Shown piece after piece: positions 2,247-52,950 of a DNA stretch of 64,000 bases; position 1 is the stretch's first letter; every line of letters starts with the position of its first letter. Below the pieces are notes generated by a model. The model worked only from the letters and a program-made list of their open reading frames with translations. It searched no databases and was not told the DNA's origin. Source of the DNA: Natronoarchaeum mannanilyticum (GTDB lineage: Archaea > Halobacteriota > Halobacteria > Halobacteriales > Natronoarchaeaceae); NCBI RefSeq assembly GCF_039522665.1, contig NZ_BAAADV010000001.1, forward strand, positions 1,437,792 through 1,501,791, read 5' to 3'. The translations under genes and the position numbers were made by a program.

Positions 2247-2860
2247 CCACGAAAGCCCTCGGCCCGCGACCGTGCCTCGCCCTTTCAGTCCACCGGAAGA
2301 CTCGCTCCGCTCGTCTTCCGAGCCCTGCCTCGCTTCGCTCGGCAGGACACCAGGACAGCACCGCACGTCCCGGCCCTCCCCCGTCGTCCGCACGAGCGTA
2401 GCGAGTGCGGGCTCGGAAGAGCTTCGCTCTTCCGGCGGCGCGCCATGAAGGCGCGCCGGGCCGCGCGGTTGCCGTGGCGCGCGCTGTCGAGCCTTCCATG
2501 GCGAGACAGCGTCGCGCGAGGGACGAGCGAAGGAGCAGCGCGACTGAGCGAGTCGGTTGGGGAGGACGAGGTTGTAGTCGGGCGGGACTGAAAGGGGCCG
2601 TCGCGCTCGGCCCGGTGAGGCGACGTAAGCACCGTGGTTCGAAAGACGCCGTAGGCGTCTTTCGTCATCACGAAAGAGCGCTTCGCGCTCTTTCGAACGA
2701 CAGCCAAAGGCGAGGAGCGCAGCGAGCCGCAACCGGTCGAGCGCGGCGGGGGCTTTCAGTGAGTTGGAGGAAACGGCAGTTCCAGAGAGCGCGGCGGGAG
2801 CTTTCAGGGAATCGTAGGCAGTAACTGCCGTTCGAAAGACTACTCCCGATCCTAGACGCG
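2247..2860. repeat. Copy A of a ~510-bp hairpin-dense intergenic repeat (inverted partner at 52380-52950).
   Basis: Near-identical reverse complement of 52446-52950 (for example cgcgccatgaaggcgcgcc, ggaagagcttcgctcttcc, gaaagcccccgccgcgctcgaccggttgcggctcgctgcgc). Contains several perfect GC stem-loops (gaaagacgccgtaggcgtctttc; gaaagagcgcttcgcgctctttc) and an internal ~45-bp tandem duplication at 2741-2830. Confidence 0.8.
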
Positions 2861-2895
2861 ACACGCTCAAGCACCTCCCGCGACAACCCGAACCC

Positions 2896-3093
2896 ATGCA
2901 GGTCACGGTGGACGTCAAGGGCGAGGACACCCACGAGATCGAGGCCGAGGAGCCCACCTACGCCGACCTCCTCGCGGCCGTCGATCTCAGCCCCCACGAG
3001 GCGTCGGTGCTGGTCGACGGTCGTCCCGTCCCCGAGGACCAGCCCGTCGAAACCGACCGCGTCACCGTCCTCCGGCTGATCAAGGGCGGGTAG
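2896..3093 (+). CDS. samp2: Small archaeal modifier protein (ubiquitin-like, MoaD/ThiS fold), SAMP2-like, ending in diglycine.
   Basis: 65 aa with a C-terminal GG. Very similar to the Haloferax volcanii SAMP2 sequence as I recall it (…VLVDGRPVPEDQ…VLRLIKGG). Confidence 0.85.
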   Translation: MQVTVDVKGEDTHEIEAEEPTYADLLAAVDLSPHEASVLVDGRPVPEDQPVETDRVTVLRLIKGG

Positions 3094-3118
3094 TCCCGCC
3101 CCGGATCGTATAGAAGAT

Positions 3119-4042
3119 TTGAAACCATTGGCGACGGAATCGCCGCCGATGGACCTCGACGACCTGACCGTCGGTAGCGAGGCCGCGGCGACGGCGGCGG
3201 ACGGGCGAACGATCGCCTACCGCGAGTACGGTGACCCCGACGGCGCGCCCGTCCTCTTCCACCACGGGACGCCGGGGTCGCGCATCCTCCCCGCGGCGTT
3301 CCACGAGATCGCTCGCGAGGCGTCGATCCAATTGCTCGCCCCCGACCGTCCCGGACAGGGCCGATCCGACCCCGCGCCCGACGCCGACGTGCTCGACTGG
3401 GCGGACGACGCCGCCGCGGTGGCCGACGACGCCGGCGCCGACCGCTTCGCCGCGCTCGGATTCTCCGGGGGCGGCCGGTTCGCGCTCGCCTGCGCCCACG
3501 AGTACCCGGACCGAGTCACCCGCGTCGCGACCGTCGCCGCCGACGGCCCGCCCGGCGCGCCGACCGACGGCGTCGGCGTGCAGAACCGATTTCTCGACGT
3601 CCTCGCCCGCCGGGCGCCGCCGCTGCTTCGGCTGCTGTTCGCAGTTCAGGCGCGGACCGCCGACCGGACCGACCCAGAGGACGCGCTCGCCCTGCTCACC
3701 GACGCCGAGCGCGACGCGCTCGACGATCGACTCGACGCACCGCCGATCGCCCGGCTCGTCGCGCTCGATCTGCGCGAGGCGTTCCGGCAGGGCCACGGCG
3801 GCGTCTCCCGCGAGTTCCGCGCCAGCGTCCGCGAGTGGCCGTTCGACCTCGCCGACGTCGAGGCGCCGGTCCGGCTCCGGCACGGCGCCGACGACCGGAA
3901 CGTCTCGCCGGCGACCGCCGAGTACCTCGCGGCGCGGCTGCCCGACGCCGACGCCGCAGTGCTACCGGACGAAGATCACCTCTCGGCGCTGGTGGCCTGT
4001 CACGACGCGACGCTCTCGTGGCTGGCGGAGCCGCTTCGATGA
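3119..4042 (+). CDS. Alpha/beta-hydrolase fold protein.
   Basis: Has an HGTPGS oxyanion-like segment, a GFSGGG nucleophile elbow (GxSxG) and C-terminal Asp/His residues. The alternative start MDLDDL is at 3149. Confidence 0.75.
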   Translation: MKPLATESPPMDLDDLTVGSEAAATAADGRTIAYREYGDPDGAPVLFHHGTPGSRILPAAFHEIAREASIQLLAPDRPGQGRSDPAPDADVLDWADDAAAVADDAGADRFAALGFSGGGRFALACAHEYPDRVTRVATVAADGPPGAPTDGVGVQNRFLDVLARRAPPLLRLLFAVQARTADRTDPEDALALLTDAERDALDDRLDAPPIARLVALDLREAFRQGHGGVSREFRASVREWPFDLADVEAPVRLRHGADDRNVSPATAEYLAARLPDADAAVLPDEDHLSALVACHDATLSWLAEPLR

Positions 4043-4927
4043 CTACTTGTCCGGCTCGGCGTTCTCGCGGACCCACTCGTACAGTTCGCCGCCGTCGACC
4101 TCGATCCCCTGGCGGCGGAAGAATGAGGCGACGTTCTCGCAGTCGCGCTCGAGGAACTCCTCGGCGTTGGGGTGGTGGACGGTCACGGCCTGCCCGACGT
4201 CGATGATCACCAGCTGGCCCTCGTAGAACAGCACGTTGTACTCGCTCAGGTCGCCGTGGACCAGCCCGGCGGCGTACAGCCGGCGGACGTACTCCCGGAC
4301 GACCTCGTAGGCGGTCTCGGGGTTTTCGATCGACACCTCGTCGAGGCGGCGGGCCCGCTCGCCGTCGGTGGCGACGAACTCCATCAAGAGCACGTTGCGC
4401 TCGGCGGCCACCGGGTTGGGGACGCGGACGCCGGCCTTGCGCGCGCGTTCGAGGTTCGACAGCTCCTTGCGGGTCCACGCGAGCACGATGTCTTTCTTGT
4501 CGCCCAGCTCCTCGAAGCGCGGGTCGCCCACCAGGTACTCGCGCATGTCCTGGAAGTTCGTCGCTCGCGTGCGGTACACCTTGATGGCGACCTGCTCGGC
4601 GTCCTCGCCCAGCGTCTCCCGGGCGCGTTCCCCGGAGAGCGCCTCGTAAACGTTGGCCTCCTTGCCCGTCGAGACGGGGCCGCCCATCGCGTCGACGTAG
4701 CCGTCCTGGACGAGCTTGTACAGCGCGGCGAACGTGGCGTCGTCGAACGCCGAGTCCTGGACGATGAAGCGCTCGGAGTCCTTGATGCGCTTGCGCCACT
4801 GGTCGAACTCGCGGTCCCGCTCGCGCGCGATCCGGTCGGCCTCCGTGTCCGAAACGTCGATCTCCTCGAACTCGTCGCCGGGGGCGTCGGCTTCGTCGGG
4901 ATCGAGGAGGCCGTACTCGCCGTTCAT
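4043..4927 (-). CDS. rio1: RIO-type serine protein kinase (Rio1).
   Basis: RIO domain motifs: STGKEANVY, the LVHGDLSEYN catalytic loop and IIDVGQAV metal-binding loop. Typical archaeal neighbourhood with aIF-1A. Confidence 0.9.
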   Translation of the reverse strand: MNGEYGLLDPDEADAPGDEFEEIDVSDTEADRIARERDREFDQWRKRIKDSERFIVQDSAFDDATFAALYKLVQDGYVDAMGGPVSTGKEANVYEALSGERARETLGEDAEQVAIKVYRTRATNFQDMREYLVGDPRFEELGDKKDIVLAWTRKELSNLERARKAGVRVPNPVAAERNVLLMEFVATDGERARRLDEVSIENPETAYEVVREYVRRLYAAGLVHGDLSEYNVLFYEGQLVIIDVGQAVTVHHPNAEEFLERDCENVASFFRRQGIEVDGGELYEWVRENAEPDK

Positions 4928-4982
4928 CTACCACGGGCTAGGCGAGCCAGCCCTAAAAGGATGCGTTCACGGCGCTCCCGTC

Positions 4983-5180
4983 TCACTCGTCGACGTCGGC
5001 GTAGACCCGCACCAGTCCGCACTCGGGACAGACGACGGCGTCGACGTCGAACTGCTCTTTGACGCCGACGCGGCCCAGCAGTCCGTCCCGCGACTCGTCC
5101 AGCACGAACCGCTCCGCGCCGGCGAGTCGTCCGGCCTCCATCCGGACGCCGCAGTCGGGGCAGCGCCGCTCGGTCGGCAT
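4983..5180 (-). CDS. Small Zn-ribbon protein (two CxxC pairs).
   Basis: CPDCG…CPECG pairs; 65 aa from MPTERRCPDCG. Sits between aIF-1A and Rio1. The longer track ORF start is Arg-rich and unlikely. Confidence 0.6.
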   Translation of the reverse strand: MPTERRCPDCGVRMEAGRLAGAERFVLDESRDGLLGRVGVKEQFDVDAVVCPECGLVRVYADVDE

Positions 5181-5182
5181 CG

Positions 5183-5461
5183 CTACTGAATGTGGCCTTC
5201 TTCGCGGAGCTGGTCGGCGTCCTGCTTCTCGTAGCGCCAGGTGATGTCGGCCTTCTCGTCCTGCCAGTCCCACGGCTCGACGAGCACGACGTCGTCCTCC
5301 CGGATCCAGATGCGCTTTTGCATCTTGCCCGGGATCCGGGCGGTTCGTTCCTTGCCGTCGGCGCAGCGCACTTCCACGCGGTTCGCCCCGAGCATGTTCG
5401 TGACCTCCGCGAACACCTCGTCGTCCTCGGGCATCCGGAGGTCCTTCCGTCCGTCGCTCAT
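5183..5461 (-). CDS. eif1a: Translation initiation factor 1A (aIF-1A/eIF1A).
   Basis: S1-like OB fold with the signature (…[35 protein letters not shown]…). Confidence 0.93.
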
Positions 5462-5484
5462 ACCCGTCCGTTGGTGACGGACGG

Positions 5485-5493
5485 TTTTAAATA
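5485..5493 (-). promoter_or_regulatory. TATA box (ttttaaata) for aIF-1A.
   Basis: AT-rich 9-mer about 25-30 bp upstream of the eif1a start in a GC-rich background. Confidence 0.5.
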
Positions 5494-5571
5494 CGCTGCT
5501 CTCGCCCGCCGTCGGGCCGCTCGTCGGCCAAACGAAAAGGATTAACTGTCGCTCGGGACCACTCCGAGCGT

Positions 5572-5760
5572 ATGCTCAAACGTCTCGGCGCGACCGGAAT
5601 CGTCGGCCTGCTGGCGATCCTCGGCGGCATCGCGCTCATCGCCTACGAAAGTCTCGTCATCGCCGGCGGCATCGCCCTGGTACTGGCCGGCATCGGTCTG
5701 GTCGTCCGCGCGCTCGTCTCCAGCCTCATCAACTCGATGGGGATGGGCGGGATGTTCTAG
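5572..5760 (+). CDS. Small membrane protein (62 aa, 2 TM).
   Basis: Two hydrophobic helices rich in G/A/I/L. ATG start with an AT-rich element about 25 bp upstream. Confidence 0.5.
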
Positions 5761-5977
5761 CACGGGCGATACCCGATTCGTCTGTCAGATCGTCCCGAGC
5801 AGCGGCGTCGCCGTGTACGGCCGAATAGCGGCGTCGCCGAACACGACCGAATAGCGGCGTCGTCGAGCCGCGATCGCGTCGTACCGTTTCTCTCGAATCG
5901 CCGCAGCGCCGCCGCTGGTGCGTAGCAATCAAAAAATCCGCGACGCGTCGGTTAGCGAGCGGTGCGCGAGGAGTCCG

Positions 5978-8900
5978 TTACTCCTCGTCGTCCTCGTCGT
6001 CGTCGGACAGCCGGCTGGCGGCCGCGGCGGCGCCGGCCACGCCGGCCGCGCCCGCCCCGACGCCGAAGCCGGGCAGCCCGTCGCTGCTCGAGCCTTCCTC
6101 CTGCGACTCGTTGCCGGAGCCTTCGTCACCGCTGTCGTCGCCGTTGTCGCCGCCGTCGTCGCTACTGCCGCCACCACTGCCGCCGCCGTAGTCGCCGATC
6201 GTGACGAACGGCAGGCTCACGGTGCTGTCGGCGGAGTAGTCGGTCAGGATCGACTCCTGATCGGCGCCCTCGGGCGTGAGGATGTCCATCGCGGCCGGGT
6301 CGTTGGTGCCCGTGCCGCCGCCGATGGCGTGCTGACCGTTGGACTCGGAGATGCCGCGGACGCCCTTCGTGCCGTAGCCGTCGTACGGCACGGTGACCGG
6401 CTGGAGCGCCATGCCGCCGTCCTCGTGGCTCCAGTCGACGGCGCCGCGTGGCACGTCGATCGAGACGGTCTTGCCGTCGGTGACGGTGTTCACGTCGGTC
6501 GAGACGGCCTCGCCGGCCGCGTTCTCGACCGCCATGGTGCCCTCGCCGTGGACGACCACGCGGTAGTGGTACGGCTGATCGAAGCCGAGGTTCGTGCCGC
6601 CGCGGCCCTCGGTGCCGCTCGGGCCGCTGGCGCTCGAGGAGGCGATGTAGACCTGGAACATCTGGTGGCTGAACCCGGGACTGAAGCTCCACGGGTTCTG
6701 GATCTCCTCGGCCATCGTGTAGTTGAACCGGACGCGGCTCCGCGACGCCTCGACGCTGAAGGACTCGATGTCCCAGGCGTTCTCGTAGTAGGCGTCGGCG
6801 GTCGGCAGCGTGTACTGCCCCGAGGCCATCCCGTCGCCGGTCGGATCGTCGAAGCTGGCGACCTCCTGGAACTCGGTGGTGACCAGAACGTAGGGGATCT
6901 GGGCGAGCTCGCCGTCGGAGTAGGCCAGCGCGTCGGCCTGCGTGGTGTTATCGTTCGACACCATGTCGATGACGTTCGGCGCGCTGCCGTTCTCGGCGCC
7001 GCCGAACGCGTCGGCCGAGGCCTCGGACTCGACGGGCATGACGCCGCCCTCGGCCGAGCCGTCGTAGCCCAACATCAGGGGCGCCAGCTGCATGGTCTCG
7101 GGCGAGACGTCGAGCTCCCGCTTGGGGATCTCCGCGATGATCTCGTACACCGCGTTGTTGAGCTTGATGTCTCCCGTCGCGACTTCGTTGCCGTCGGCGT
7201 CCTCGAGACGGACGCCGTTCTCGCCGTCCGCGACCACGCGGTAGTGGTACGGCTCGGCGAACTCGGCGTTGACGCCCGTCCTCGCGCTCGTCGAACCGCC
7301 GTCGCCGCTCGAGTCGCGGACGTACACCTGCAGGTGCTGGTTGGAGAAGCCGTGCTCCAGGTCGTCGGGGTTGGCTACCTCGGTGTCGACGCCGTAGATG
7401 AACTGATAGTTGTCCTCGGTCTCGTGGACGCGGAACGTGTCGATGTCGAACGTTCCGTCGGCGTAGCCGTCTCCGGTCGGGTACGTGTACGACGTGGTGC
7501 TGTCCTCGGCGTCGGGCTGACCCGGGCCGATGTCGTCGCCCGTCGGGTCGCTCGTCTCGAAGACGGTTTCGCCGGTCGGCAGCAGCGAGGGCGCCTCGAA
7601 GATCGCGATTGTGTCGACCTCGGCGACGGCCGCCGCGGCACCGCTGGACATCGAGAGGTCCTCGCCGCTGAGCAGGTCCGTGGTGCTGACTTCCGGTCGG
7701 AGGTTGACCTGCGAGGGTTCTTCCTCGAAGTTGATGACGACGACGACTTTCTCGGGGCCGTCGACGTCCTCGAGGTGGCTCGCGTCGCGGCCGAACACGA
7801 GGAGGTTAGGTTCCTCCTTGTAGGCCGTGTTGAACCACTCGCCCGACATGTCGGCGTCGGGCTTGAGCACGTCCATATCGTGGTACGCGCCGATCAGGTC
7901 CTTGTAGAACTGGAGGTGTTCCTCGTCGTACTCGTCCCAGTTCATGAACGCGCGCTTCTTGCCGCCGGGGAAGATGTCCCCGCTACGCGGGTCGTCCTCG
8001 CCCATGTGGCGGCCCTCGCCGTACTCGCTGATGGCCCGTTCCTGGCCGTAGTAGACGAAGGGGACGCCGGGCAGTGTGACGCCGGCCGCCCAGCACGCCC
8101 GCTGGGCCTTCTTCGGTTGGTCGCGGGTGCCCCCCTCCATGATCTGGTTGAGAAGGCGCTCCTCGTCGTGGTTCTCGGTCGTGTTGAGGATCAGGGTGTG
8201 CTCCGGGAACCCTTCGGCCTTGCGGCTGTTGATCGAGCTGAGGATCTCGTTGGCGGGCGCGTTGTCCCGTCCGATCCCCCGCATCGTGTTCATGAACTCC
8301 GAGGTGTCGAAGTGCATGTCGAACTCGTTCTCGGCGAAGTGGGGATCCTTCGGGATCGACTCGTCGAGCATCAGGAACTCGCTGTCGTTCGAGCGCACGA
8401 GGTCCCGCACTTCCTTCCAGAAGCTGTGGGGCGTCCCCCACGCGATGTCGCAGCGGAACCCGTCGACGCCGACCTCGCCGGACCAGAAGTCAGCGACCGC
8501 GAGCATGTGCTCGCGCAGCGCCATGTTGTCGAAGTTCCAGTTGGGCTGTAGGCGCAGGCCCCAGAACCCGGTGTTACCCGGCGCGGGGTCGACGACGCCG
8601 CCGTCGGGACCGGTGATCGGGGCGTCCATCCGGTCGAACCAGTCGAAGTACTTCGAGTCCTGGTTCCACTCCTCGACCGGCAGGAACTCCCAGCTCTCCG
8701 CGGGCACCTCGTCGCCCTTGCTCGCGATCGTATCCTGGAAGTAGGGGTGGTTACGACCGGCGTGGTTGATCACCATGTCGAACACGACCTTGATGTCGTG
8801 GTTGTGACACTCTTCGATGAACGCCTGGTAGTCCTCGACCGATCCGAGGTCGGAGGCGACGGACATGTAGTCCGTGGCGTCGTAGCCGTGGGGGCCGCCG

Positions 8901-9922
8901 CCGGCCATCTCCTTGCTCGAGCTCACCGAGGGGTAGATCGGCGTCAGCCAGACGGCGTCGATACCGAGCTCGTCGAGATAGCTCACCTTCTCGGTGAGAT
9001 ACTGCATGTCGGTTTCGCCGCGCTCGCCGGCAAAGGAGCGGGTGAAAATCTCGTACATCACGCCGTCTTTCATCCACTCGGGCGGGCGGTTCGGCAGGTG
9101 GACCTCGCCGTCGGGGTCCAGCATGACCGTGTCGGCCATCCCGTGGATGTCGCCGTCGTAGGGCGCGGCGTGGACGCGCGCGGCGTCGCCGCTGATCGCG
9201 CTCGCGGGGACGCGCGCCGTCGTTCCCTCGTCGACGATGTCGCTCGTCGAGAGCGCGTCGCGGTCGTCCGCGAGGAACTCGACCGTCAGGTCCTCGGGAT
9301 TCGCGTTGCTGTTGGGCGACAGCTTGGCGTTGGACTCGATGACGAACTCGCCGGCCTCGCTGTCGAACTCGGCGTCCAGCGAGAGGCGCGGCGGGCCGCC
9401 CGCTCCGTCGGGCGTCGCGGGGAACGCGTGAAGCGTCATCTGGTGGGTGCCGTCCGGGGCGTCGACCTCGACGACGTACGTGCCCGGCGCGTCGGCGGTG
9501 AACTCCGCGACGTTCTTTTTACCGTTGTCCCAGCGCGGCTCGCCGTCCTCGTCGTCGGTCTCGAAGGCGAGCACGTCGCCGCTGCTACCGTCGGGCGACT
9601 CGGCGAGCGACCACTGGAAGTCGTCGGCGCTGTAGTTGGCCGGGTCGGCGCCGATGTCCGTCACTCGCGGCGCGAGATTGTCGCGGTCGAAAACGTGGCT
9701 CCCGTCGACGTAGATGGAGTTGCGCAGCGATTCGCCGACCTCGACGAACCGCGGTTCGCCGGGGTGATGGGAGTCCGCACCGTTCGATGCTGCCTGCTGA
9801 AGCGCCGGCTGGGTCTCCGCGCTGCCGTAGCCGGAGGACAGCGAGAGTGCGCCGAGCCCGGCGATGCCGCCGAGCACGCTTCGTCGACTCGTTGTGGGGG
9901 TGAGATTGTCGTTGTTGCTCAT
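5978..9922 (-). CDS. Tat-secreted, cell-surface GH13 alpha-amylase family glycoside hydrolase with tandem glucodextranase-like domains and a PGF-CTERM-like anchor.
   Basis: N-terminal twin-arginine signal (TSRRSVLGGIAGLGALS). GH13 catalytic core (GIDAVWLTPIY…, DGFRCDIAW, an EHDxxR-like region). Two ~150-aa repeats resembling glucodextranase C-terminal domains. C-terminal LPGFGVGAGAAGVAGAAAAA hydrophobic tail. The antisense 877-aa ORF 5918-8551 is an artefact. Confidence 0.85.
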   Translation of the reverse strand: MSNNDNLTPTTSRRSVLGGIAGLGALSLSSGYGSAETQPALQQAASNGADSHHPGEPRFVEVGESLRNSIYVDGSHVFDRDNLAPRVTDIGADPANYSADDFQWSLAESPDGSSGDVLAFETDDEDGEPRWDNGKKNVAEFTADAPGTYVVEVDAPDGTHQMTLHAFPATPDGAGGPPRLSLDAEFDSEAGEFVIESNAKLSPNSNANPEDLTVEFLADDRDALSTSDIVDEGTTARVPASAISGDAARVHAAPYDGDIHGMADTVMLDPDGEVHLPNRPPEWMKDGVMYEIFTRSFAGERGETDMQYLTEKVSYLDELGIDAVWLTPIYPSVSSSKEMAGGGPHGYDATDYMSVASDLGSVEDYQAFIEECHNHDIKVVFDMVINHAGRNHPYFQDTIASKGDEVPAESWEFLPVEEWNQDSKYFDWFDRMDAPITGPDGGVVDPAPGNTGFWGLRLQPNWNFDNMALREHMLAVADFWSGEVGVDGFRCDIAWGTPHSFWKEVRDLVRSNDSEFLMLDESIPKDPHFAENEFDMHFDTSEFMNTMRGIGRDNAPANEILSSINSRKAEGFPEHTLILNTTENHDEERLLNQIMEGGTRDQPKKAQRACWAAGVTLPGVPFVYYGQERAISEYGEGRHMGEDDPRSGDIFPGGKKRAFMNWDEYDEEHLQFYKDLIGAYHDMDVLKPDADMSGEWFNTAYKEEPNLLVFGRDASHLEDVDGPEKVVVVINFEEEPSQVNLRPEVSTTDLLSGEDLSMSSGAAAAVAEVDTIAIFEAPSLLPTGETVFETSDPTGDDIGPGQPDAEDSTTSYTYPTGDGYADGTFDIDTFRVHETEDNYQFIYGVDTEVANPDDLEHGFSNQHLQVYVRDSSGDGGSTSARTGVNAEFAEPYHYRVVADGENGVRLEDADGNEVATGDIKLNNAVYEIIAEIPKRELDVSPETMQLAPLMLGYDGSAEGGVMPVESEASADAFGGAENGSAPNVIDMVSNDNTTQADALAYSDGELAQIPYVLVTTEFQEVASFDDPTGDGMASGQYTLPTADAYYENAWDIESFSVEASRSRVRFNYTMAEEIQNPWSFSPGFSHQMFQVYIASSSASGPSGTEGRGGTNLGFDQPYHYRVVVHGEGTMAVENAAGEAVSTDVNTVTDGKTVSIDVPRGAVDWSHEDGGMALQPVTVPYDGYGTKGVRGISESNGQHAIGGGTGTNDPAAMDILTPEGADQESILTDYSADSTVSLPFVTIGDYGGGSGGGSSDDGGDNGDDSGDEGSGNESQEEGSSSDGLPGFGVGAGAAGVAGAAAAASRLSDDDEDDEE

Positions 9923-14691: not shown

Positions 14692-15378
14692 ATGAAGACG
14701 AGCGGCGGATCGGCGGCGGCGAAGCGCCGGGCGGGCGAAAGCACAGCCGACGCGGTCGAGGACGGGCAGGTCGTCGGGCTGGGCACCGGCAGCACGGCGG
14801 CCCACGCCATCCGGGCGATCGGCGACGCGGTCGCCGACGGGCTCGACGTCCGGGGCGTCCCGACCTCCTTCCAGTCCCGGCAGCTCGCGATCGAGGCGGA
14901 GATTCCGCTGGTCGAGCTGGACGAGGTCGACGGGGTCGACCTGGCGATCGACGGTGCCGATCAGGTCGCGGGCGGTCAGCTGATCAAGGGCGGCGGCGCG
15001 GCTCACGCCCGCGAGAAGATCGTCGACGCCGCGGCCGACCGGCTGCTGGTCGTCGTCGATCCCGGGAAGCTCGCCGACCGGCTCGATCGATCGGTGCCCG
15101 TCGAGGTGCTGCCGGCAGCGCGGCCGGTCGTCGAGGATCGGCTCGCGACGCTGGGCGGCGAGCCGACGCTCCGCTCGGCCGAACGCAAGGACGGCCCGGT
15201 CGTCACCGACAACGGAAACGTCGTGCTCGACTGCGAGTTCGGCGCGATCGACGCGCCCGCCGATCTTGCAGCCGAGCTATCGAGCGTGCCGGGCGTCGTC
15301 GAGCACGGACTGTTCGTCAACCTGGCCGACGAGATCCACGTCGGCCGCGAGGACGGCGTCGACGTCCGGACGCCGTAG
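14692..15378 (+). CDS. rpiA: Ribose-5-phosphate isomerase A.
   Basis: RpiA motifs (GLGTGSTA; DGADQV; KGGGAAHAREKI). ATG at 14692 within a longer antisense-overlapping track ORF. Confidence 0.9.
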   Translation: MKTSGGSAAAKRRAGESTADAVEDGQVVGLGTGSTAAHAIRAIGDAVADGLDVRGVPTSFQSRQLAIEAEIPLVELDEVDGVDLAIDGADQVAGGQLIKGGGAAHAREKIVDAAADRLLVVVDPGKLADRLDRSVPVEVLPAARPVVEDRLATLGGEPTLRSAERKDGPVVTDNGNVVLDCEFGAIDAPADLAAELSSVPGVVEHGLFVNLADEIHVGREDGVDVRTP

Positions 15379-43839: not shown

Positions 43840-43842
43840 GCG

Positions 43843-44868: not shown

Positions 44869-44870
44869 GG

Positions 44871-45980
44871 TCAGTCCTCCAGGAAGGTCTCGTCGCCGTG
44901 CGTTTCGCGGAGCCGTCGGAAGTACTCCAGTTGCTGTTCGAGTCGCTTCGGCATATCCTGATACACGTGGCGGAACATCGCCTCGGGGTCGGGGCGCTCG
45001 GCCGATTCGGCCGTGTCGATGGCGTCGGCGACGCGCTCTTCGATCCCGTCTTCGATCGCGGCGACGCGCTCGTCGTCGAGCCGCCCCGTCGAGCGCAGGA
45101 ACGTCTCTAGGCGCGGGATCGGGTCTTTCTGCTTCCAGCGCTCGACCTCCGCTTCCTCGCGGTAGACGCTAGGGTCGTCGGCGGTGGTGTGGGCGCCGAA
45201 TCGGTACTGCACCGCCTCGATCAGCGTCGGGCGCAGCTCGCCGTCGTCGGGGTCCTTGGCTTTCTCGATCGCCTCGCGGGTCACCTTGTACACCGCCAGC
45301 GGGTCCATCCCGTCGACCTGTACGCCCTCGAACCCGTACGCCTCGGCCTTCTGGGCCAGCGTTGCGCTGGCGGTCTGGCGCCCGCGGGGCACCGAGATCG
45401 CCCACTGGTTGTTGTTACAGAAGAAGATCGCCGGCACGTCGAACACGCCGGCGAAGTTCAACCCCTCGTGGAAGTCGCCCTCGCTGGTCGCGCCGTCGCC
45501 GAAGTAACAGAGGAAGGCGCGATTTTCCCCTTTGAGCTTCGAGGCCCAGGCCGCCCCGGTCGCGTGGGGGATCTGGGTGGCGATGGGGACGGCGGGCGTG
45601 AACATATTGACGTCCTCGGGCACTCTGGTTCCCTCCTCGCTGCCCATCCAGTACAGCAGTGTCCGCTCTAGAGGCATCCCCCGGATCATCACCGCGGCGT
45701 GCTCGCGGTAGCTCGGGAAGATCCAGTCCTCCTCGGCCAGCGCGCGGGCGCTGCCGACCTGCGAGCCCTCCTGGCCGGACATCGGGGGATACGTCCCCAT
45801 CCGGCCCTGCCGCTGGAGGCTCACCGCCCGCTCGTCGAACCGCCGCGCCAGGCGCATGTCCCGGTACATCTCGATCATCGCCTCGTCGTCGAGATCGGGA
45901 ACCTCGGCGCCCTCGCGCACCCGACCCGCGTCGTCGAGCACCTGTACTCGCTCGTCGGGGTCGCGCTGTATCGTACTCAT
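44871..45980 (-). CDS. pdhA: 2-oxoacid (pyruvate) dehydrogenase E1 alpha subunit (TPP-binding).
   Basis: TPP motif [17 protein letters not shown]…NN and E1 alpha fold. Lies 3 bp upstream of pdhB. Confidence 0.92.
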
Positions 45981-46231
45981 GGAAGAATCCTCCGGCGCAT
46001 AGTATCATGATCGTTCGCTCGGGTTATAGGATTTTCGTACATAGTTTACTAACGACTCAATACTTGCCACCGAGTCGCAAACTCGTCCAGTTTAGAGGAA
46101 GGTATCGAAACGAACAGCGCATTCGACACCGATTAACTGACTGGGGAGTCACCGAAGCAGCGGCTGGCGTCACCCTTCTGGACGAACGGCCAGTTTCCGG
46201 AAGTCGCGATAGTCTCTCAGCCGCTCCGCGC

Positions 46232-47179
46232 TCAGTCGCCCGCCCGCGCTTCGGCCCTGGCGTCCTCGACGCTCTTGCCCTCTCGGAGGACGGCGTCGAC
46301 GAACAGCTCCCCCGCCTTGTACGACGATCGCACCATCGGACCCGACGCGCAGTACAGGAAGTCGAGTTCCTCCTCGGCGACGCGGCGCCACGTCTCGTAC
46401 GTGTCGGGGTGGACGTACGATTCGACGGGGAGGTGCTCGCGCGAGGGCCGGAGATACTGGCCCAGCGTCACGACGTCGACCTCGGCTTCGCGAAGGTCCG
46501 CGAGCGTCCGGTAGACCTCGTGGTCGTACTCGCCGTGGCCCAGCATGATCGAGGTCTTCGTGTAGACGTCGGACTCGCGACCGGCCTGTTCGAGCACCGA
46601 GAGGCTCTGCTCGTAGCCCGCTCGCGGGTCCCTGACTTTCCCCTGGAGGCGCTCGACCGTCTCGACGTTGTGGGCGATCACGTCCGGGCCGGCGTCGATG
46701 ATCTTCCGGACGAGTTCGGGCTCGCCCTGGAAGTCGGGGATCAGCACCTCGACCAGGATGCCGGGGTGGCGCCGTTTGATCTCCCGGATCGTCTCGGCGA
46801 AGTGGGCGGCGCCCTGGTCGGGCAGATCGTCCCGGTCCACGGAGGTCAGAACGACGTAGTCCAGCCCGATCTCGGCGACGGCGCTGGCGACGTTTTCCGG
46901 TTCGTCGGGATCGAGCGGCTCGCCGCCGCCGGTCTCGACGTCGCAGAAGCCACACGAGCGCGTGCACTTGTGACCCATCAGCATGAACGTCGCCGTCCCG
47001 CCGGCGTCGCCCTCTCCCGGTCCCCCGCGCCCGCTCCAGCACTCCCCCAGATTCGGGCAGTTTGCCTCCTCGCAGACGGTGTTGAGGTCGTGCTCGCGAA
47101 GCGTCCGCTTGATATCGGTGAACTCGTTTCCGGAGGGCGGCTGGACCGCCAGCCAGTCGGGCTTCCGCGAGCGGCTCAT
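46232..47179 (-). CDS. lipA: Lipoyl synthase.
   Basis: Radical-SAM CxxxCxxC (CTRSCGFC) plus an N-terminal auxiliary cluster ([12 protein letters not shown]). Confidence 0.93.
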
Positions 47180-47258
47180 GGTATTCGTTCGGGGCTACCC
47201 GGACAAAAGGATGCAGGATCGGTCCGGCGTCGCAGCGGGTCGGGGCGAACGGATACCG

Positions 47259-47585
47259 CTACTCGGCGTCGGTGAGAGCGCGGGCGGCCTCGAGGGGCTC
47301 GGCGCCGTCGGCGATCGACTCCACCACGGGATCGCTCTCGTAGCGGACGGTGTTGAGCTCGTGGTCGTACTCGAGCAGTCCGGCGTCGTCGAGCTTCGGG
47401 AGGTGAACGTGGTGAAGTTCGACTCTCACCGTTTGCGGGTCCGCCCCGTCGTGGTCGCGCGACGCGACGCGCTCGCTCACCTCCTCCAGCGGCAGGAACT
47501 CCCGCTCGGCCGCGGCGACCACTTCGCAGACGTTCCGTCGCCGTCCGTGGGCCAGTGCGTCGAGAATATCGTGGGCGGGAATCAT
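47259..47585 (-). CDS. Small conserved hypothetical protein (108 aa), possibly winged-helix.
   Basis: Start at MIPAHD (47585). The N-terminal extension of the track ORF is Arg-rich junk. Confidence 0.45.
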   Translation of the reverse strand: MIPAHDILDALAHGRRRNVCEVVAAAEREFLPLEEVSERVASRDHDGADPQTVRVELHHVHLPKLDDAGLLEYDHELNTVRYESDPVVESIADGAEPLEAARALTDAE

Positions 47586-47700
47586 TGGTGAACTCGGGGT
47601 CCGGGTCGACGTGGTACAGTACTGTTCGACACAGCTCCGGATAACCGTTGACCATGGACTGTCATGCAAGCCGCGACGATCCCGACGCCTCGCCCCGATC

Positions 47701-48366
47701 TCAGTCGGCCGCCGCGGCGTCGGCACGCGCGAAGATCGTGTTCGCCGCGAGCGTCGAGATCCCCCGCCGCAGGCGCTCGGTCAGCGCCTGATCGGAGATG
47801 CCGAGCTCTGCGGCCACCTCTACCGTGTTGCAGCGTCGCGGCACGTCGTAGTACCCCATTTCGACGGCCAGCGTCAGCGCCTCGTGCTGGTGATCGGTCA
47901 GCCCGAACCGCGGCCCGGCGTCGGGCTGTCCGGGATGGTACACCCGCTCGACCGACAGGGACACGTCGGCGTCCGTACAGTAAGCTCGGAACGCCGACAG
48001 AGCGTCGTGGTCCGGAAATCGGAGCTCGAAGCGCCACTCGTCGCCGCCGCCGGTGGCTCGGAGGATCTGGCCGCACTGGTCTCTGACTGCCGAGAGAAAC
48101 GGATCGTCTTCGACGTTCCAGTCCAGCCCGTACAGCGTCTGGTCGTCGAACTCCTCGACGATCTCGACGCCCTCGACGACGGGCCGACTCTCGAGCCGAA
48201 CCGCGAACGCCTCGGTGTCGACGCCGTGCACCCAGAAGAACGGCACCGCGCGGTCGGCGACGGGCACCAGCGTTTCGAGCTCGACGCTGACGTAACCTGA
48301 TACATCTAGAATGCGTCCTAACTCGAAGTCAGCAGCAGGAATACGAAGTTCTGCGATGACGCTCAT
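47701..48366 (-). CDS. Bat-type (HTH_10) transcriptional regulator with an N-terminal sensor-like domain.
   Basis: C-terminal HTH_10 signature (GLTDHQHEALTLAVEMGYYDVPRRCNTVEVAAELGISDQALTERLRRG). Confidence 0.8.
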   Translation of the reverse strand: MSVIAELRIPAADFELGRILDVSGYVSVELETLVPVADRAVPFFWVHGVDTEAFAVRLESRPVVEGVEIVEEFDDQTLYGLDWNVEDDPFLSAVRDQCGQILRATGGGDEWRFELRFPDHDALSAFRAYCTDADVSLSVERVYHPGQPDAGPRFGLTDHQHEALTLAVEMGYYDVPRRCNTVEVAAELGISDQALTERLRRGISTLAANTIFARADAAAAD

Positions 48367-48527
48367 ATATGGCGTTTTATACTAGTGTCTGATAGGACGT
48401 TTATCTGAACGGCTTGGCATATCAGGGGGAATAAACCCGCCGGCGATTGGTGGCGACGATGGTGAGATCTACACGCAAGCTAGAGCGCGGCGATACGACC
48501 GCTTCGCGACGCCGAAGAAAAAACCGA

Positions 48528-49085
48528 TCAGCCGAGGACGTACCGCAGCGCGGGGTAGCGCTCGATCAGCGCCTCGCCGCCGACGTCGATCCGTTCGATG
48601 TAGCGGTCCAGCCCGAGGATCCGCCCCGCGCCGAACGCCGCGACGGCCAGGAACACGACGCCGTAGATCAGCGTCGAGTCGAACAGAGCGAGCCAGTCGC
48701 CGGTCCAGCCGCCGAGGTAGAACAGCGCCATCTGCATGGCGCCGCCCAGCGCGGCCAGTCGGACGAAGGCGCCGGCGATCAGCGCGACGCCGATGAGCAG
48801 TTGGGTGACCGGGACGACCACGTTGACGACCTCCATCAGCGCGGCGTTGCCGGCCATCGCGGCGAAGAGCCCGCTCGCGGGGCTGGCGGGGTCGACGCCG
48901 TGCGCGAGGTAGCCGGCGGCGTCGAACGGCCACTCGGCGACTTTGCCGAGCCCGGCGAAGAGGATCATCCCGCCGATGACGACTCGCAGGGCGACGACGA
49001 ACCACGCCGACAGGGCGTGGGGCCGTCCTTCGAGGTTGATTCCGGCGTAGCGGCTTTCGAGTCTGTTTTGAGTTTTGGTGGACAT
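48528..49085 (-). CDS. DoxX family membrane protein.
   Basis: Four TM helices with DoxX-like topology and conserved pattern (…ALRVVIGGMILFAGLGKV…). Confidence 0.7.
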   Translation of the reverse strand: MSTKTQNRLESRYAGINLEGRPHALSAWFVVALRVVIGGMILFAGLGKVAEWPFDAAGYLAHGVDPASPASGLFAAMAGNAALMEVVNVVVPVTQLLIGVALIAGAFVRLAALGGAMQMALFYLGGWTGDWLALFDSTLIYGVVFLAVAAFGAGRILGLDRYIERIDVGGEALIERYPALRYVLG

Positions 49086-49279
49086 TAGTTTTCTCCTCTT
49101 ACAGATATCACTACGCCCGTTCGCATATTAACTGGAGAAGGTGGTTTCCAAAACCCGAGAACCGTGGTAGTGTGACGCACGTCGATTCGCGAATCGGCCG
49201 CGAGGCCCGTCGTCGGCGTCGCCGCCCGCTTCCGGTCCAAAGGAAACGCATATGGCCCCCGACCCCACGCCTAGGGACG

Positions 49280-51652
49280 ATGGAGGTCGCCGAGGTTCTC
49301 CCCGACTTCGCGGACGCTTTCGCCTTCGAGGAGTTCAACGAGATGCAGCGCGAGGCGTACCGCCCGATCCTCGAGTCCGACGAGAACGTCGTCGCCAGCG
49401 CGCCGACCGGCAGCGGCAAGACCGCCCTCGCCGAGCTGGCGATCTGCAAAGCCCTCGAAGAGGGCGGGACGGCGCTGTTCATCGCGCCGCTCCGGGCCCT
49501 GACCAACGAGAAGGAGTCGGACTGGGAGCGCTTCGAGGCGCTCGATTTCTCGGTGTACGTCGTCACCGGCGAGCGGGACCTGAACCCGCGGCGCGCCGAG
49601 CGCGCCGACATCCTCGTGATGACGCCCGAGAAGGCCGACTCGGCGACCCGCAAACACGACACGCGCAGGTACTCCTTTATCACGGACGTCGACGTCTGCG
49701 TGATCGACGAGGTCCACCTGCTGGACTCCGAGAAGCGCGGCAGCGTGCTGGAGGTGACGATCTCGCGGCTCCGTCGGCTCTGCGATCCCCGGATCGTCGC
49801 GCTCTCCGCGACGATGCCCAACGTCGACGACGTGGCGGCGTGGCTCGACGCCCCCGACGAAACGACGTTCCAGTTCGGCGACGAGTACCGTCCCGTGGAC
49901 CTGCACGCCGACGTGCGCACGTACACCCACGGCGAGAACTCCTTCGCCGACAAGTACCGACGCCTCTACCGGGCGCTGGATCTCGCGGAGCCCCACATCG
50001 AGGAGGACGGCCAGGCGCTGGTGTTCGTCTCCTCGCGTCAGGACACCGTCCAGGCCGCAAAGAAGGCTCGCGACGAGATCGCCGAACGCGACCTGTCGAT
50101 GGGCGCTCGCGGCGACTACGATTTTCACACCGAGACGCAGAAGCTGGAAAACGACACCCTCCGGCAGTCGGCGCTCGACGGCGTCGCCTTCCACCACGCC
50201 GGGCTCTCGAAGAACGACAAGGATCTGATCGAGGAGTGGTTCAAGCAGGGCCACATCCAGCTGCTGTTCTCGACGTCGACGCTCGCGTGGGGCGTCAACC
50301 TCCCCGCGCGCTGCGTCGTTATTCGGGACACGAAGTACCACGACCCCCTGGAGGGCGAGGTCGACATGAGCCCGCTGGACGTGCTCCAGATGCTCGGACG
50401 CGCGGGCCGGCCGGGCTACGACGACGTGGGGTACGGCTGGATCGTCTGCGACCGCTCGGACGCCGACAAGTACCGCAAACTGCTCCGGGACGGCAAGGAG
50501 ATCGAGTCCCGCCTCGCGGAGGACCTGGAGGCCCACCTCAACGCCGAGATCGCGATGGGGACGATCGACGACGTCGACGACGTGGTCGAGTGGGTCGAGA
50601 CGACCTTCTACTACCGGCGCGCCCAGACCGTCCCCGAGCAGTACGGCTTCGGCGACGTGGACGCCGACGGCGAGAAGTTCGAGGAGGCGCTCCGCGAGCA
50701 GGTCAGCGACGCGCTCGCGGGGCTGGAGGAACGGGGCTTCGTCGAGACCCAGGGACTGCGCGTCGACTCGACGGCGCTGGGGACGCTGGCCTCGAAGTAC
50801 TACCTCCGGCTCGACACCGCAAAGCGGTTCCACGAGGTGGCGACCGGCGGCGAGATCGACGTCGACGCCGTGCTCGAAGCGGTCGCGACGGCCAGCGAGT
50901 TCGACTCGGTCAACGCCCGCTCGGCCGAGCGCGACGCCATCTCCGCGGTGCTCTCTGGCAAGACGGTCGGCGACGTCGACGCCGGCCAGCGCAAGGTGCT
51001 CGCGATCTTGCACTCCTCGATGACCGGCTCGACGCCCGCCGATCTCTCCAGCGACGCGTGGGTGATCCGCCAGAACGCGGTGCGGCTGCTGTCGTCGTTG
51101 CAGGCCTTCTTCGGGCGGTTTGCGGATCCCCGAGCTGCCAACCTCGCGCGGCGCGTCGAGGCGCGCCTGGAGAACGGCGTCAGCTCGGACGCGGTGGGGC
51201 TGACGGCGGTCGACGGCATCGGCTCGGGGCGCGCGAGCAAGCTGGCCTCGGAGGGCATGACGACGCCCGCCGACGTCCAGTCGGCCGGCGTCGACGGTCT
51301 GGTGGCCGCGGGGCTCTCCGAGGGCGTCGCCGAGCGCGTCGTCGAGTCCGCCGGCGAGTTGCCGGTAGTGGGGATCGAGTGGGGGTCGTTCCCGGATTCG
51401 ATCGCGCAGGGCGACAACGAAATGTGCGAAGTGACGGTGACGAACTCGGGCGGCGGCGCGCAGGCCGGCGTGCGCGTGACGGTCAACGGCGTCGAAATGA
51501 CCGCGACGGAGGCGTATCTCTCGCAGCCCGTGGAGGTGCCGGTGGGGGTGTTCGGCGGGTCGGAAAGCCCGATGGAGTTCACCGTCGAGGTGTGTTTCCC
51601 CGAACTTCCCTTACTGCCCGTTCGGGACTCCCGGACCGTTCGGGTGGAGTGA
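49280..51652 (+). CDS. Ski2-like superfamily-2 helicase with a Sec63-like C-terminal region (Hel308/Brr2-related).
   Basis: Helicase motifs I (APTGSGKT), II (DEVH), III (SAT), VI (QMLGRAGR). A winged-helix/Sec63-like segment follows, then a unique ~100-aa C-terminal beta-rich tail. Confidence 0.85.
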   Translation: MEVAEVLPDFADAFAFEEFNEMQREAYRPILESDENVVASAPTGSGKTALAELAICKALEEGGTALFIAPLRALTNEKESDWERFEALDFSVYVVTGERDLNPRRAERADILVMTPEKADSATRKHDTRRYSFITDVDVCVIDEVHLLDSEKRGSVLEVTISRLRRLCDPRIVALSATMPNVDDVAAWLDAPDETTFQFGDEYRPVDLHADVRTYTHGENSFADKYRRLYRALDLAEPHIEEDGQALVFVSSRQDTVQAAKKARDEIAERDLSMGARGDYDFHTETQKLENDTLRQSALDGVAFHHAGLSKNDKDLIEEWFKQGHIQLLFSTSTLAWGVNLPARCVVIRDTKYHDPLEGEVDMSPLDVLQMLGRAGRPGYDDVGYGWIVCDRSDADKYRKLLRDGKEIESRLAEDLEAHLNAEIAMGTIDDVDDVVEWVETTFYYRRAQTVPEQYGFGDVDADGEKFEEALREQVSDALAGLEERGFVETQGLRVDSTALGTLASKYYLRLDTAKRFHEVATGGEIDVDAVLEAVATASEFDSVNARSAERDAISAVLSGKTVGDVDAGQRKVLAILHSSMTGSTPADLSSDAWVIRQNAVRLLSSLQAFFGRFADPRAANLARRVEARLENGVSSDAVGLTAVDGIGSGRASKLASEGMTTPADVQSAGVDGLVAAGLSEGVAERVVESAGELPVVGIEWGSFPDSIAQGDNEMCEVTVTNSGGGAQAGVRVTVNGVEMTATEAYLSQPVEVPVGVFGGSESPMEFTVEVCFPELPLLPVRDSRTVRVE

Positions 51653-52309
51653 TCAGCTCGTCAGTTCCAGCAACAGGCCGCGCAGTTCTTCGGGTCCCTC
51701 GGCGACGTGATCCGCCTTCGAGAGATCCATCCCCTGGTTGATCTCGGTTCGGTAGCCGACGCTGGTCATCCCTGCCCTATTGGCCGCCTCGACGCCGTTC
51801 TCGGAATCTTCGACGGCGACGCAGTCGGCGGGGTCGACGCCGACCTCGGCGGCGGCGATCTCGTACACCTCCGGTTCGGGCTTGCTCGGCCCCTCGATCT
51901 CGTCGCCGCTGACCAGCGCGTCGAAGTGCTCGCCGATCTCGAAGCGGTCGACGACGATGCCGATCCAGTCCAGCGGCGAGGATGAGACGACCGCCGTGCG
52001 GACGCCGCGGTCGCGCAGGTCGTCGGCAAGTTTCTCGAATCCCTCGATCAACTCGACGCGCTCGCTGTAGAGATCATCGGCGGCGTCCTCGTAGTAGGTC
52101 TCGAACTGCTCGCGGCCGATGTCGAGGTGCTCGCCGTAGTGGTCGTCGAGGTAGCCGTGGATCTCCCGGTAGTTCATGCCCGTGATCTCCTCGTCGTCGA
52201 CGACGCCCTCGCCGACGGCCTCGGGGAGGACCTCCTCCTCTTCGAGCGCGACCCAGTACTCCTCGGAGTCGACGAGGACGCCGTCCATGTCGAACAGGAC
52301 TGCTTTCAT
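51653..52309 (-). CDS. HAD-superfamily hydrolase (beta-phosphoglucomutase-like subfamily IA).
   Basis: Motif I DMDGVLVDS, motif II SSS, and K…D/ED motifs. Start at MKAVLF (52309). Confidence 0.85.
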   Translation of the reverse strand: MKAVLFDMDGVLVDSEEYWVALEEEEVLPEAVGEGVVDDEEITGMNYREIHGYLDDHYGEHLDIGREQFETYYEDAADDLYSERVELIEGFEKLADDLRDRGVRTAVVSSSPLDWIGIVVDRFEIGEHFDALVSGDEIEGPSKPEPEVYEIAAAEVGVDPADCVAVEDSENGVEAANRAGMTSVGYRTEINQGMDLSKADHVAEGPEELRGLLLELTS

Positions 52310-52379
52310 TGCGTGGGCGTAGAGCGGGCGGCGGGTTATAGGGTGGAGTTGCGGCGGTTCGTGCTGGGTTCGGGTTAGG

Positions 52380-52950
52380 AGTTGGAGATTGCACCTGCAC
52401 TTGTGTCGCACTCCCTGGAACTGGGGCGACGACTTCGAACACGCCGAAAGCCCCCGCCGCGCTCGACCGGTTGCGGCTCGCTGCGCGCTTCCTTCGCTCC
52501 CCTCGGTCGCTCCGTCCAGTGCTTACTTCGCCTCACCGGATCGACCGCGGCGGCCCCTTTCATTCCACCCGGACCGCAACCTCGTCCTCCCCAACCGACT
52601 CGTTCGCCTGACGGCTCACTCGCCCCTCGCGCGCTGCTGTCTCGCCATGAAGGCTCGACAGCGCGCGCCATCGCAACCGCACGGCCGGGCGCGGCTTCAT
52701 GGCGCGCCGCCGGAAGAGCGAAGCTCTTCCGAGCCCGCACTCGCTACGCTCGTGCGGACGACGGGGGAGGGCCGGGGCGCGCGTGGTCGGCCGCTAGCCG
52801 ACCCGCGCACTGCGGTTGCGGTGCTGGCCTGGCGGACTGAAAGGGCGAGGCACGCTCCGGGAAGCACGACCCGTCAAGCACCGGAGCGACCGAAGGGAGC
52901 GAGGAGCGCAGGCGGGGCGCGCGACTGGAGCGGGCCGAGGGCTTTCGTGG
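52380..52950. repeat. Copy B (inverted) of the hairpin-dense ~510-bp intergenic repeat.
   Basis: Reverse-complement match to 2247-2757 with scattered substitutions and small indels. Intergenic between the HAD hydrolase and the NucS-N-like gene. Confidence 0.8.

Follow-up and report, generated by a model that had tools for sequence, protein, structure and literature searches.

Paired composite hairpin repeats bracketing a 50-kb segment in Natronoarchaeum mannanilyticum, and the haloarchaeal unit from which they are built

The bacterial REP/BIME elements and the RNA-structured MITEs (Correia/NEMIS, ERIC, BOX and RUP) are intergenic palindromes that occur in alternating orientation, adopt structure as single strands, assemble into mosaic clusters and act as substrates for rearrangement. 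Within this group the REPs are 20-40 nt long, lie mostly 3' of genes, lack target-site duplications (TSDs) and are linked to RAYT. The subject here is a hairpin-dense repeat found as two opposed copies in a 64,000-nt stretch of DNA from the haloarchaeon Natronoarchaeum mannanilyticum (assembly GCF_039522665.1, contig NZ_BAAADV010000001.1, positions 1,437,792 to 1,501,791; hereafter the window), and its closest described kind is the miniature transposable elements with inverted repeats (MITEs) of haloarchaea, namely ISH2 and MITEHsal1-14 of Halobacterium salinarum and HqIRS of Haloquadratum walsbyi. Like the present repeat, these MITEs are non-coding, shorter than ~0.6 kb and dispersed in several copies, and like some relatives of the two copies they have terminal inverted repeats (TIRs) and TSDs; they likewise insert into other mobile elements and join in rearrangements (PMC3119063, PMC7002104).

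The two copies in the window, A (2200-2846) and B (52398-52956), are probably paralogues that both belong to a composite, GC-rich repeat of MITE type without coding capacity, and they mark the breakpoints of an inversion in a sister lineage. Three bodies of evidence carry this view: the copies share an architecture of conserved units that recur throughout the haloarchaea, members of the family in relatives carry the ends and duplications of transposition, and in a lineage ~90% identical to the window at the DNA level (lineage R) the segment between the two loci lies in the opposite orientation.

The two copies and their parts

The pair was first recorded in an earlier note, made from the sequence alone, as near-exact reverse complements at 2247-2757 and 52446-52950. 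The inverted pair is real at these positions; near-exact is too strong, since in a MAFFT alignment the mean column identity is 78% and the differences between conserved blocks are whole hairpin modules gained or lost. With blastn of 2200-2870 against the window, copy A matched the reverse strand of copy B at 2362-2632 versus 52783-52519 (87.5% over 271 nt, E = 9e-92), 2717-2768 versus 52486-52435 (92%), 2246-2267 versus 52951-52930 (22/22) and 2263-2294 versus 52861-52831 (91%), and a repeat finder returned the same arms (I1, of 135 nt at 95%, plus I2, I4 and I24). Copy A lies between a membrane-protein gene (1574-2146, plus strand) and SAMP2 (2896-3093, plus), and copy B between the diverging genes for a HAD-family hydrolase (52309-51653, minus) and a NucS-like protein (53066-53836, plus). 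Gene calls and the indels agree with the note that both copies are intergenic and non-coding: the elements are short (206-650 nt), and open reading frames (ORFs) across them are spurious because the indels between copies are not multiples of three. Their GC content of 0.66-0.71 compares with 0.69 for the host genome, and the folding of both copies is much more favourable than that of shuffles (z = -6.7 and -7.3).

The note had also raised the possibility that assembly had created the pair, for instance from a contig end that was collapsed or duplicated. A Logan short-read contig of the same strain does stop inside the repeat, at window position 2748. Nevertheless the copies are just 78-87% identical and differ in their indels, copy A with both its flanks is spanned at 99.6% identity by an independent assembly (GCA_042661785.1, locus L002), and relatives carry elements at both loci, which leaves an artefact with a vanishingly small probability.

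Each copy is a head-to-head dimer of ~120-nt units, with tails outward, around a hairpin spacer of 255-290 nt, and it is on account of this arrangement that each folds end to end. They are thus not the single element first envisaged, but composites with nested hairpin modules. A covariance model made from 62 units gives four matches in the window; one of these, the right unit of B, belongs to the seed alignment (A2) of the model. Copy A reads, in order, as an outer tail remnant, an internally deleted left unit, the hairpin spacer, the right unit, a second tail and a right extension. The features are as follows.

2200..2846, plus strand: copy A, whole composite, delimited by homology to copy B and to the orthologous loci L138, L139 and L135
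2241..2297, minus strand: left unit of A, with an internal deletion that brings head GGACTGAAAGGGC up against tail GAGGGCTTTCGTGG; model match 17.6 bits, E = 0.025
2295..2348, plus strand: two-hairpin module (GGAAGAC…GTCTTCC, CCTGCC…GGCAGG), in A and not in B
2362..2578, plus strand: hairpin-rich spacer between the unit heads, the best-conserved A/B core (I1, 95% over 135 nt)
2579..2765, plus strand: right unit of A (GGGACTGAAAGGGGCC…GGGGGCTTTC) with nested insert; model match at 2591-2756, 55.8 bits, E = 1.6e-10
2637..2698, no strand assigned: 62-nt double-hairpin mini-element that interrupts the right unit of A, the indel falling precisely at CCG^CAG
2786..2808, plus strand: second tail motif (GAGAGCGCGGCGGGAGCTTTCAGGG), kept in orthologues and separated by 91 nt from the SAMP2 ATG downstream
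52398..52956, minus strand: copy B, whole composite, a dimer with a 255-nt spacer, from repeats, MAFFT, blastn and the covariance model
52828..52956, plus strand: left unit of B, complete, tail toward the NucS-like gene; 70.9 bits, E = 1e-13, full model length
52436..52572, minus strand: right unit of B, complete, tail toward the HAD gene; 79.6 bits, E = 1.4e-15
2847..52397, no strand assigned: SAMP2-to-HAD segment, inverted in lineage R
2896..3093, plus strand: SAMP2 gene, downstream of copy A; Pfam PF21965, E = 1e-31
51653..52309, minus strand: gene for the HAD-family hydrolase, with the right unit of B upstream of it; Pfam HAD_2, E = 9e-28
53066..53836, plus strand: gene for the NucS-like protein, with the left unit of B upstream of it; Pfam NucS_N, E = 2e-6

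The ends had been described as sharp on one side and degraded on the other. The sharp left end of copy A (ACCACGAAAGCCC) is indeed present, with a degenerate tail motif also found upstream of it at 2202-2215, and the membrane-protein flank of the rearranged relative stops at ~2209-2235; the right side of A runs to ~2846, past the 2757 first given. The right end of copy B is set by an element-free junction in three other assemblies (L140, L141 and L142), in which homology resumes at 52386-52397. In the MAFFT alignment the deleted left unit of A is homologous to the complete left unit of B. The right unit of A has a 60-nt insertion relative to the covariance model, and nhmmer detects it as fragments. 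The spacer core includes a long-range pair in the predicted fold (CCCTCCCC…GGGGAGG), and its 3' part (GCGCGAGGGAyGAGCGA…GGTTGGGGAGG) recurs upstream of units at many loci. Tandem tail modules are found at many loci.

Plasmids from at least seven genera hold unannotated DNA that is 90-95% identical to the two-hairpin module of copy A (2295-2348), and at the Halopiger locus L049 this module stands in the matching position with stem changes that are compensatory. The plasmid matches come from Halomicrobium, Salinigranum, Halostella, Natrinema, Salinibaculum, Haloarcula and Halobacterium (pNRC200), where the pNRC200 module has an insertion of ~60 nt in the loop of its second hairpin; further sites are L003 2501-2556 and L004 1501-1610.

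The unit: spread, mobility and structure

When copy A was searched against plasmids only pieces of it were matched, from many haloarchaeal genera, and the matches share the 16-mer GGGACTGAAAGGGGCC. In a scan of one genome per species this 16-mer marks at least 120 stretches, ~112 of those listed being from Halobacteria of many genera, often several per genome, while the few bacterial matches are due to chance, all other features of the unit being absent from them. The unit is 101-129 nt long, begins with the head GGGACTGAAAGGGGCC and ends with the tail GGGGGCTTTC; between these lie, in order, a 5' arm that varies, CCCGGaCGACGyAAGCACCGCAG, a small hairpin that also varies, GAGGAGCGCAGCGAG and the matching 3' arm. 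The covariance model finds 135 matches in 739 kb, the unit matches 83 plasmid records, Haloferax volcanii pHV4 (with a unit at 14804-14910, minus strand) and Halobacterium salinarum PHS2 among them, and several metagenome-assembled genomes hold at least seven unit loci. With copies in more than 30 haloarchaeal genera and several to a genome, the unit is a class-wide haloarchaeal repeat. Further copies, for which the earlier note had suggested a search of related genomes, are thus plentiful, and its alternative of a MITE-like mobile family gains from these counts as well as from the ends described below.

In known collections the unit has left little trace. No Rfam 15 family reaches its gathering score anywhere in the window, the best match in a permissive scan of 2150-2900 being 19 bits against a cut-off of 44, and searches of the literature by sequence words and by topic yielded no published description of the unit. 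Within IMG/VR the 16-mer occurs in only 6 contigs, and partial matches of 35 nt are confined to two Halorubrum pleomorphic viruses (four phage records). A tRNA- or SINE-like origin was rejected, the window being without tRNA genes. As a separate observation, Halobacterium salinarum PHS2 and Halorubrum salinarum pHAR02 have in common a plasmid module that is 92-97% identical and contains one unit (L126 2817-3107 and 3160-4409; L128 2942-3107 and 4383-5626); match statistics identical in seven genera suggest that this module moves between genera.

Mobility is most evident in relatives. In Haloplanus sp. C73 at least six copies of the dimer element, 87-98% identical, lie at unrelated loci with sharp ends that form terminal inverted repeats (left GATAGTGTTCAGATTAGCG…, right …CTTATCTGAACACTGCC), and direct repeats such as TCGCTTGGG stand at both sides of these copies. 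The terminal inverted repeats of some relatives read GRYAGTGTTCAGAT…. Across all loci there are 14 TIR-bounded elements with the ends GRYAGTGTTCAGATWAGC, both monomers and dimers, of 206-483 nt; exact direct repeats of 8-10 bp occur at the boundary of five of them, a length of 8 bp that none of 182 mismatched flank pairs attains. The combination of TIRs with exact 8-10 bp duplications is the signature of DDE-type transposition, and therefore at least the TIR-bounded subfamily would be a MITE. Judged by these ends and flanks, the repeat family evidently transposes like a MITE, presumably moved by a DDE-type transposase that acts in trans.

Smaller hairpin modules also move independently and insert into units. 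The clearest is a 54-62-nt double-hairpin mini-element (GTTCGAAAG…CTTTCGTSATSACGARAG…CTYTCGAAC), which has covarying stems and constant flanks (..GTG|element|GAC..) without target duplication. The instance in the right unit of A is missing, as a precise indel, from copy B and from the orthologous units of L138 and L139, and six distinct copies with identical flanks were found at other loci. Sites outside the window are L043 7725-7778, L068 6103-6160, L088 4215-4272, L103 6980-7037, L112 4540-4597 and L147 ~735-805. The copies are inserted at differing sites within units, that of L147 at another position of the orthologous B unit. Insertion of such smaller hairpin elements after the arrival of the larger repeat would account for its onion-like, hairpin-dense look.

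The unit is also strongly structured, as the folding and covariation analyses proposed in the note have confirmed. In the 62-sequence alignment compensatory changes are present at 22 of 30 predicted pairs; 92.1% of cells are paired, as opposed to 73.3% in shuffles (none of 500 as high) and at most 48.1% with the partners slid, and the covariation score is 0.442 against 0.134 and at most 0.087, respectively. Helices P1-P3 covary and the internal loops are conserved. Many curated RNA families covary no more strongly than this unit, which has no Rfam entry. On the unit strand G·U pairs exceed A·C mismatches by 63:16 in this alignment, and by 113:18 on 105 model-aligned units, where fitting to the model somewhat favours G·U. 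Of the pairs formed by neighbouring units 29 are head-to-head, with 15-27 nt between the members in 20 cases; a further 8 are tail-to-tail and 11 are tandem. In 14 head-to-head dimers the G·U excess is seen in both members (12:2 and 14:4). The two members lie on opposite genomic strands, which rules out a mutation bias tied to the replication strand. The excess of G·U over A·C therefore points to a unit strand constrained as a single strand, whether as RNA or as single-stranded DNA, and most likely this strand would be used as RNA transcribed outward toward the adjacent promoters.

One system in which single-stranded DNA could explain a strand-specific structure is that of REP/BIME-like units or IS200/IS605-derived PATEs moved by a Y1 transposase of TnpA or RAYT type. 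The units do form hairpins in alternating orientation, as in BIMEs; nesting is similar in Haloquadratum PATEs and SMRs (PMC3119063), and on pNRC200 a TnpB gene is followed, 400 nt downstream, by a hairpin module. Y1 transposases, however, do not make TIRs or exact 8-10 bp TSDs, and PATEs by definition have neither (PMC3119063), so that this origin is very improbable. An assignment to the REP/BIME systems with RAYT conflicts with the size of the unit and with its TSDs, and an idea of REPtrons was dropped, as the ORFs between unit pairs in L073 and L048, read by eye and without a Pfam scan, look like ordinary small proteins and not like transposases. An assignment to PATEs or IS200-IS605 conflicts in turn with the TIRs and TSDs of relatives. 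A TnpB/ωRNA or PATE origin was likewise rejected, on account of these TSDs and because the unit bears no relation to the DNA that follows the tnpB stop on pNRC200, which is the single IS605-type end compared.

The position of units relative to genes, which were called by a simple codon-position GC rule, is far from even. Only 18 of 161 units overlap called genes, and units are enriched in divergent spacers, which hold 47 of 108 while making up 21% of all spacers in number and 32% in length. The tail faces a gene start in 79 of the 108, at a tail-to-ATG distance of 74-113 nt in 30 of the 79, with unrelated downstream genes (loci L006-L125). For the TIR-bounded forms ~45-55 nt separate the end of the element from the ATG downstream, TATA-like TTTWW motifs beginning just past that end, and since haloarchaeal transcripts are mostly leaderless the end would lie just upstream of the TATA and B recognition element region. 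Within the window the tails lie 91 nt (second tail) and 139 nt (first tail) from the SAMP2 ATG, 137 nt from that of HAD and 120 nt from that of NucS. Such promoter-proximal clustering could reflect a target preference, the survival of harmless insertions, or function.

There is a different reading, by which the unit would serve in the first place as a structured RNA with a function, or would regulate in cis as RNA or DNA, placed just upstream of promoters and maintained by selection across the Halobacteria; MITE-like copies would carry it secondarily, and A and B would be regulatory modules conserved at the promoters of SAMP2, HAD and NucS. The strong covariation with G·U above A·C in both dimer members, the primary sequence of loops kept across more than 30 genera, the tails turned to gene starts at clustered distances, the persistence of elements at the same two loci through speciation and the host-like GC content would all suit such a role. 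Against it stand the functionally unrelated downstream genes, the absence of an Rfam family or of any description found in the literature, the free decay of orthologous copies (L135, L139), and the TSDs and near-identical dispersed copies, which denote transposition. A structured non-coding RNA had already been listed as an alternative in the earlier note; the strand-specific covariation keeps it in consideration, as a rather unlikely account of the repeat. It is possible, if still doubtful, that the unit (GGGACUGAAAGGGGCC, P1-P3, GGGGGCUUUC) would be a structured element, as RNA or as single-stranded DNA, that occurs throughout the class, has so far escaped description and has its own function, which may be that of a promoter-proximal regulatory or insulating RNA running outward from the dimer centre, or of a structure for its own mobilisation. 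In that event the MITE-like copies, including A and B, would be vehicles of the unit and not inert DNA.

The two loci in relatives and the inverted segment

Relatives of the two loci were fetched through the neighbouring hydrolase and HAD proteins; a protein 100% identical to the hydrolase bears the name N. mannanilyticum. The order membrane protein, element, SAMP2 is found in L138 (hydrolase identity 85%) and L139 (82%), and on the other side an element adjoins HAD in L145 (93% HAD identity), in L147 (94%, partial) and in L146 (90%), as it does in L143 and L144 (84%), where NucS lies on the far side. With elements at both loci in relatives, both insertions are old, and the comparison shows that the two copies have been in place since before several Natronoarchaeum-like lineages diverged. 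The cores of A and B are nonetheless 86.5% identical to each other, compared with 70-73% between A and its positional orthologues and 57% for B; as the paralogues are more alike than the orthologues, sequence would have been exchanged or recopied between A and B within the lineage. Orthologous copies have decayed, with the unit interior lost in L135 and the left half in L139. An observation of its own kind concerns the metagenomic relative L147 (~900-1060), where the tail of the element abuts the HAD gene near codon 10; neither promoter nor start codon is present, and the product as called has 174 aa rather than 218.

Lineage R has the opposite arrangement. In three independent assemblies (L140, L141 and L142) window position 2209 is joined to an inverted 52386 with 18 nt between, so that HAD follows the membrane-protein gene at 156 nt without an element. 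The reciprocal junction is seen in one assembly, L135, where a single A-like element comes after the NucS gene with its promoter and precedes SAMP2 and the genes that lie further on, the join being 53003 (reverse complement), element, and 2745 onward. Comparison of these junctions shows the ~50-kb segment from SAMP2 to HAD to be inverted in lineage R, with breakpoints that lie at the ends of the elements. The possibility, voiced in the earlier note, that the intervening segment could invert is thus supported between genomes. Since R is nested among lineages with the order of the window, its arrangement is most simply taken as derived. At L135 1470-3824 three extra genes, for a lipoyl-domain protein and for E1 beta and E1 alpha of a 2-oxoacid dehydrogenase, lie between SAMP2 and the hydrolase gene, which are adjacent in the window.

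The inversion would have resulted either from recombination between the two copies or from the action of a transposase on their ends. A plain homologous crossover, with the copies as passive substrates and no transposase, has several points in its favour, as the copies are inverted and share 135 nt at 95% and 271 nt at 87%, the closer resemblance of paralogues than of orthologues suggests exchange between them, and the L135 element has the left flank of B and the right flank of A. However, such a crossover should leave two hybrid copies, and none is present at the membrane-protein|HAD junction in three assemblies. The surviving L135 element is also A-like throughout, the two-hairpin module missing from B included, and for this reason the L135 junction is placed at the left end of the element and not in its core. 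With breakpoints at element ends rather than in the homologous core, and with one junction free of any element, a plain crossover within the repeats is insufficient alone and requires an additional precise deletion; it is a plausible course of events, though not the one to be expected. In detail, a crossover near the shared left end could have been followed by precise loss of one copy. Alternatively, a transposase could have acted on one end of each copy and joined the flanks, after which two adjacent copies would have collapsed. A change of opposite polarity is also conceivable, for replicative intramolecular transposition in an R-like ancestor would yield the arrangement of the window exactly; the distribution among relatives speaks against this polarity. 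A target-site-like repeat common to the left flank of A and the right flank of B, which would be a sign of replicative transposition, was considered and rejected, the similarity being too weak.

Several observations weigh against the view that A and B are composite MITE-like copies at which the inversion broke. The TIR motif is near only about one quarter of units, so that the unit may be older or broader than one MITE subfamily, and copies A and B have only weak similarity to it at the corresponding positions. Target-site duplications, which it had been proposed to seek, are exact in five of the 14 TIR-bounded relatives and none is reliable in the window: there is no convincing one at A and none was found for B. 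The 8-bp CGATCCTA at 2239-2246 and 2847-2854 was rejected as a duplication around copy A, because its left instance lies inside the element between two tail motifs and its right instance is conserved in the SAMP2 upstream region of orthologues. As to an autonomous insertion sequence, blastn of the terminal 46 nt against plasmids gave chance bacterial matches only, and in ~1 Mb of loci there is no TIR pair more than 483 nt apart and none able to encode a transposase. Covarying stems with class-wide sequence conservation are unusual for the interior of a MITE and fit a functional RNA equally well; the copy count for the source genome, which is two, covers the window only; and the element-free junction in lineage R is unlike the prediction of a simple inverted-repeat crossover. 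For the cognate insertion sequence the ISH6 family, with its GGT ends and 8-bp duplications, would be a candidate.

Viewed more broadly, the 0.5-0.8-kb hairpin spacers of haloarchaea are nests of small palindromic mobile modules around one conserved unit, which now has a definition in sequence and structure and extends to the model organisms Haloferax volcanii and Halobacterium salinarum. As endpoints of a 50-kb inversion, MITE-like repeats, beyond full insertion sequences, bear on the reshaping of haloarchaeal chromosomes. The inversion is a good and unsurprising case of repeat-associated rearrangement, and the unit is the more interesting product of the analysis.

Other repeats of the window are of a different nature. 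Inverted matches at 13888-13931/18744-18787 (91%) and 14286-14331/18347-18392 (87%), ~4-5 kb apart, resemble motifs conserved between two paralogous genes that face opposite ways, possibly of the phosphohexomutase type from their TASHNP motif. A direct repeat, 6542-6592/7220-7270 (80%, 678 nt apart), lies within an alpha-amylase/glucodextranase-like gene of ~1300 aa (5978-9922, minus strand) and suggests internal domain repeats.

Relation to described systems

Set beside the haloarchaeal MITEs, the present family differs first in composition, as the Halobacterium MITEs in the tables of PMC7002104 are AT-richer than their genome, at 46-49% GC, whereas the repeat described here has a host-like ~70%. 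In its interior lies a unit with covarying helices that is conserved throughout the class and mostly arranged as a head-to-head dimer, the copies in the window are without clear TIRs or TSDs, and in plasmids and ~1 Mb of loci no cognate transposase was found. Compared with REPs, the units are longer (~120 nt, 101-129) and promoter-proximal, and at least one subfamily has TIRs and 8-10 bp TSDs.

For the smaller modules the nearest parallel is SMR-A of Haloquadratum, which the mini double hairpin resembles in its prominent inverted ends, its lack of target duplication and its preference for insertion into other repeats, and heterogeneous mosaic copies such as those seen here are typical of PATEs (PMC3119063). 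The likeness to SMR-A is one of behaviour; SMR-A differs in being ~110 bp long and in belonging to a low-GC genome (PMC3119063). PATEs derive from IS605-type ends, and the present unit has no similarity to the one such end compared, that of pNRC200.

Inversions bounded by insertion sequences are a familiar feature of Halobacterium (PMC7002104). For the present inversion, the counterpart is the 23.8-kb inversion bounded by ISHsal1 in Halobacterium salinarum 91-R6, in which opposed copies of a mobile element bracket a segment found in both orientations (PMC7002104). The repeats here are non-coding, 0.55-0.65 kb in length and 87% identical, with one junction element-free, and the two orientations are distributed between ~90%-identical lineages rather than within one population. 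What the window and its relatives have in common with that case is the essential arrangement of an invertible segment bounded by inverted repeats: inverted copies at either side and both orientations of the segment, here seen between lineages.

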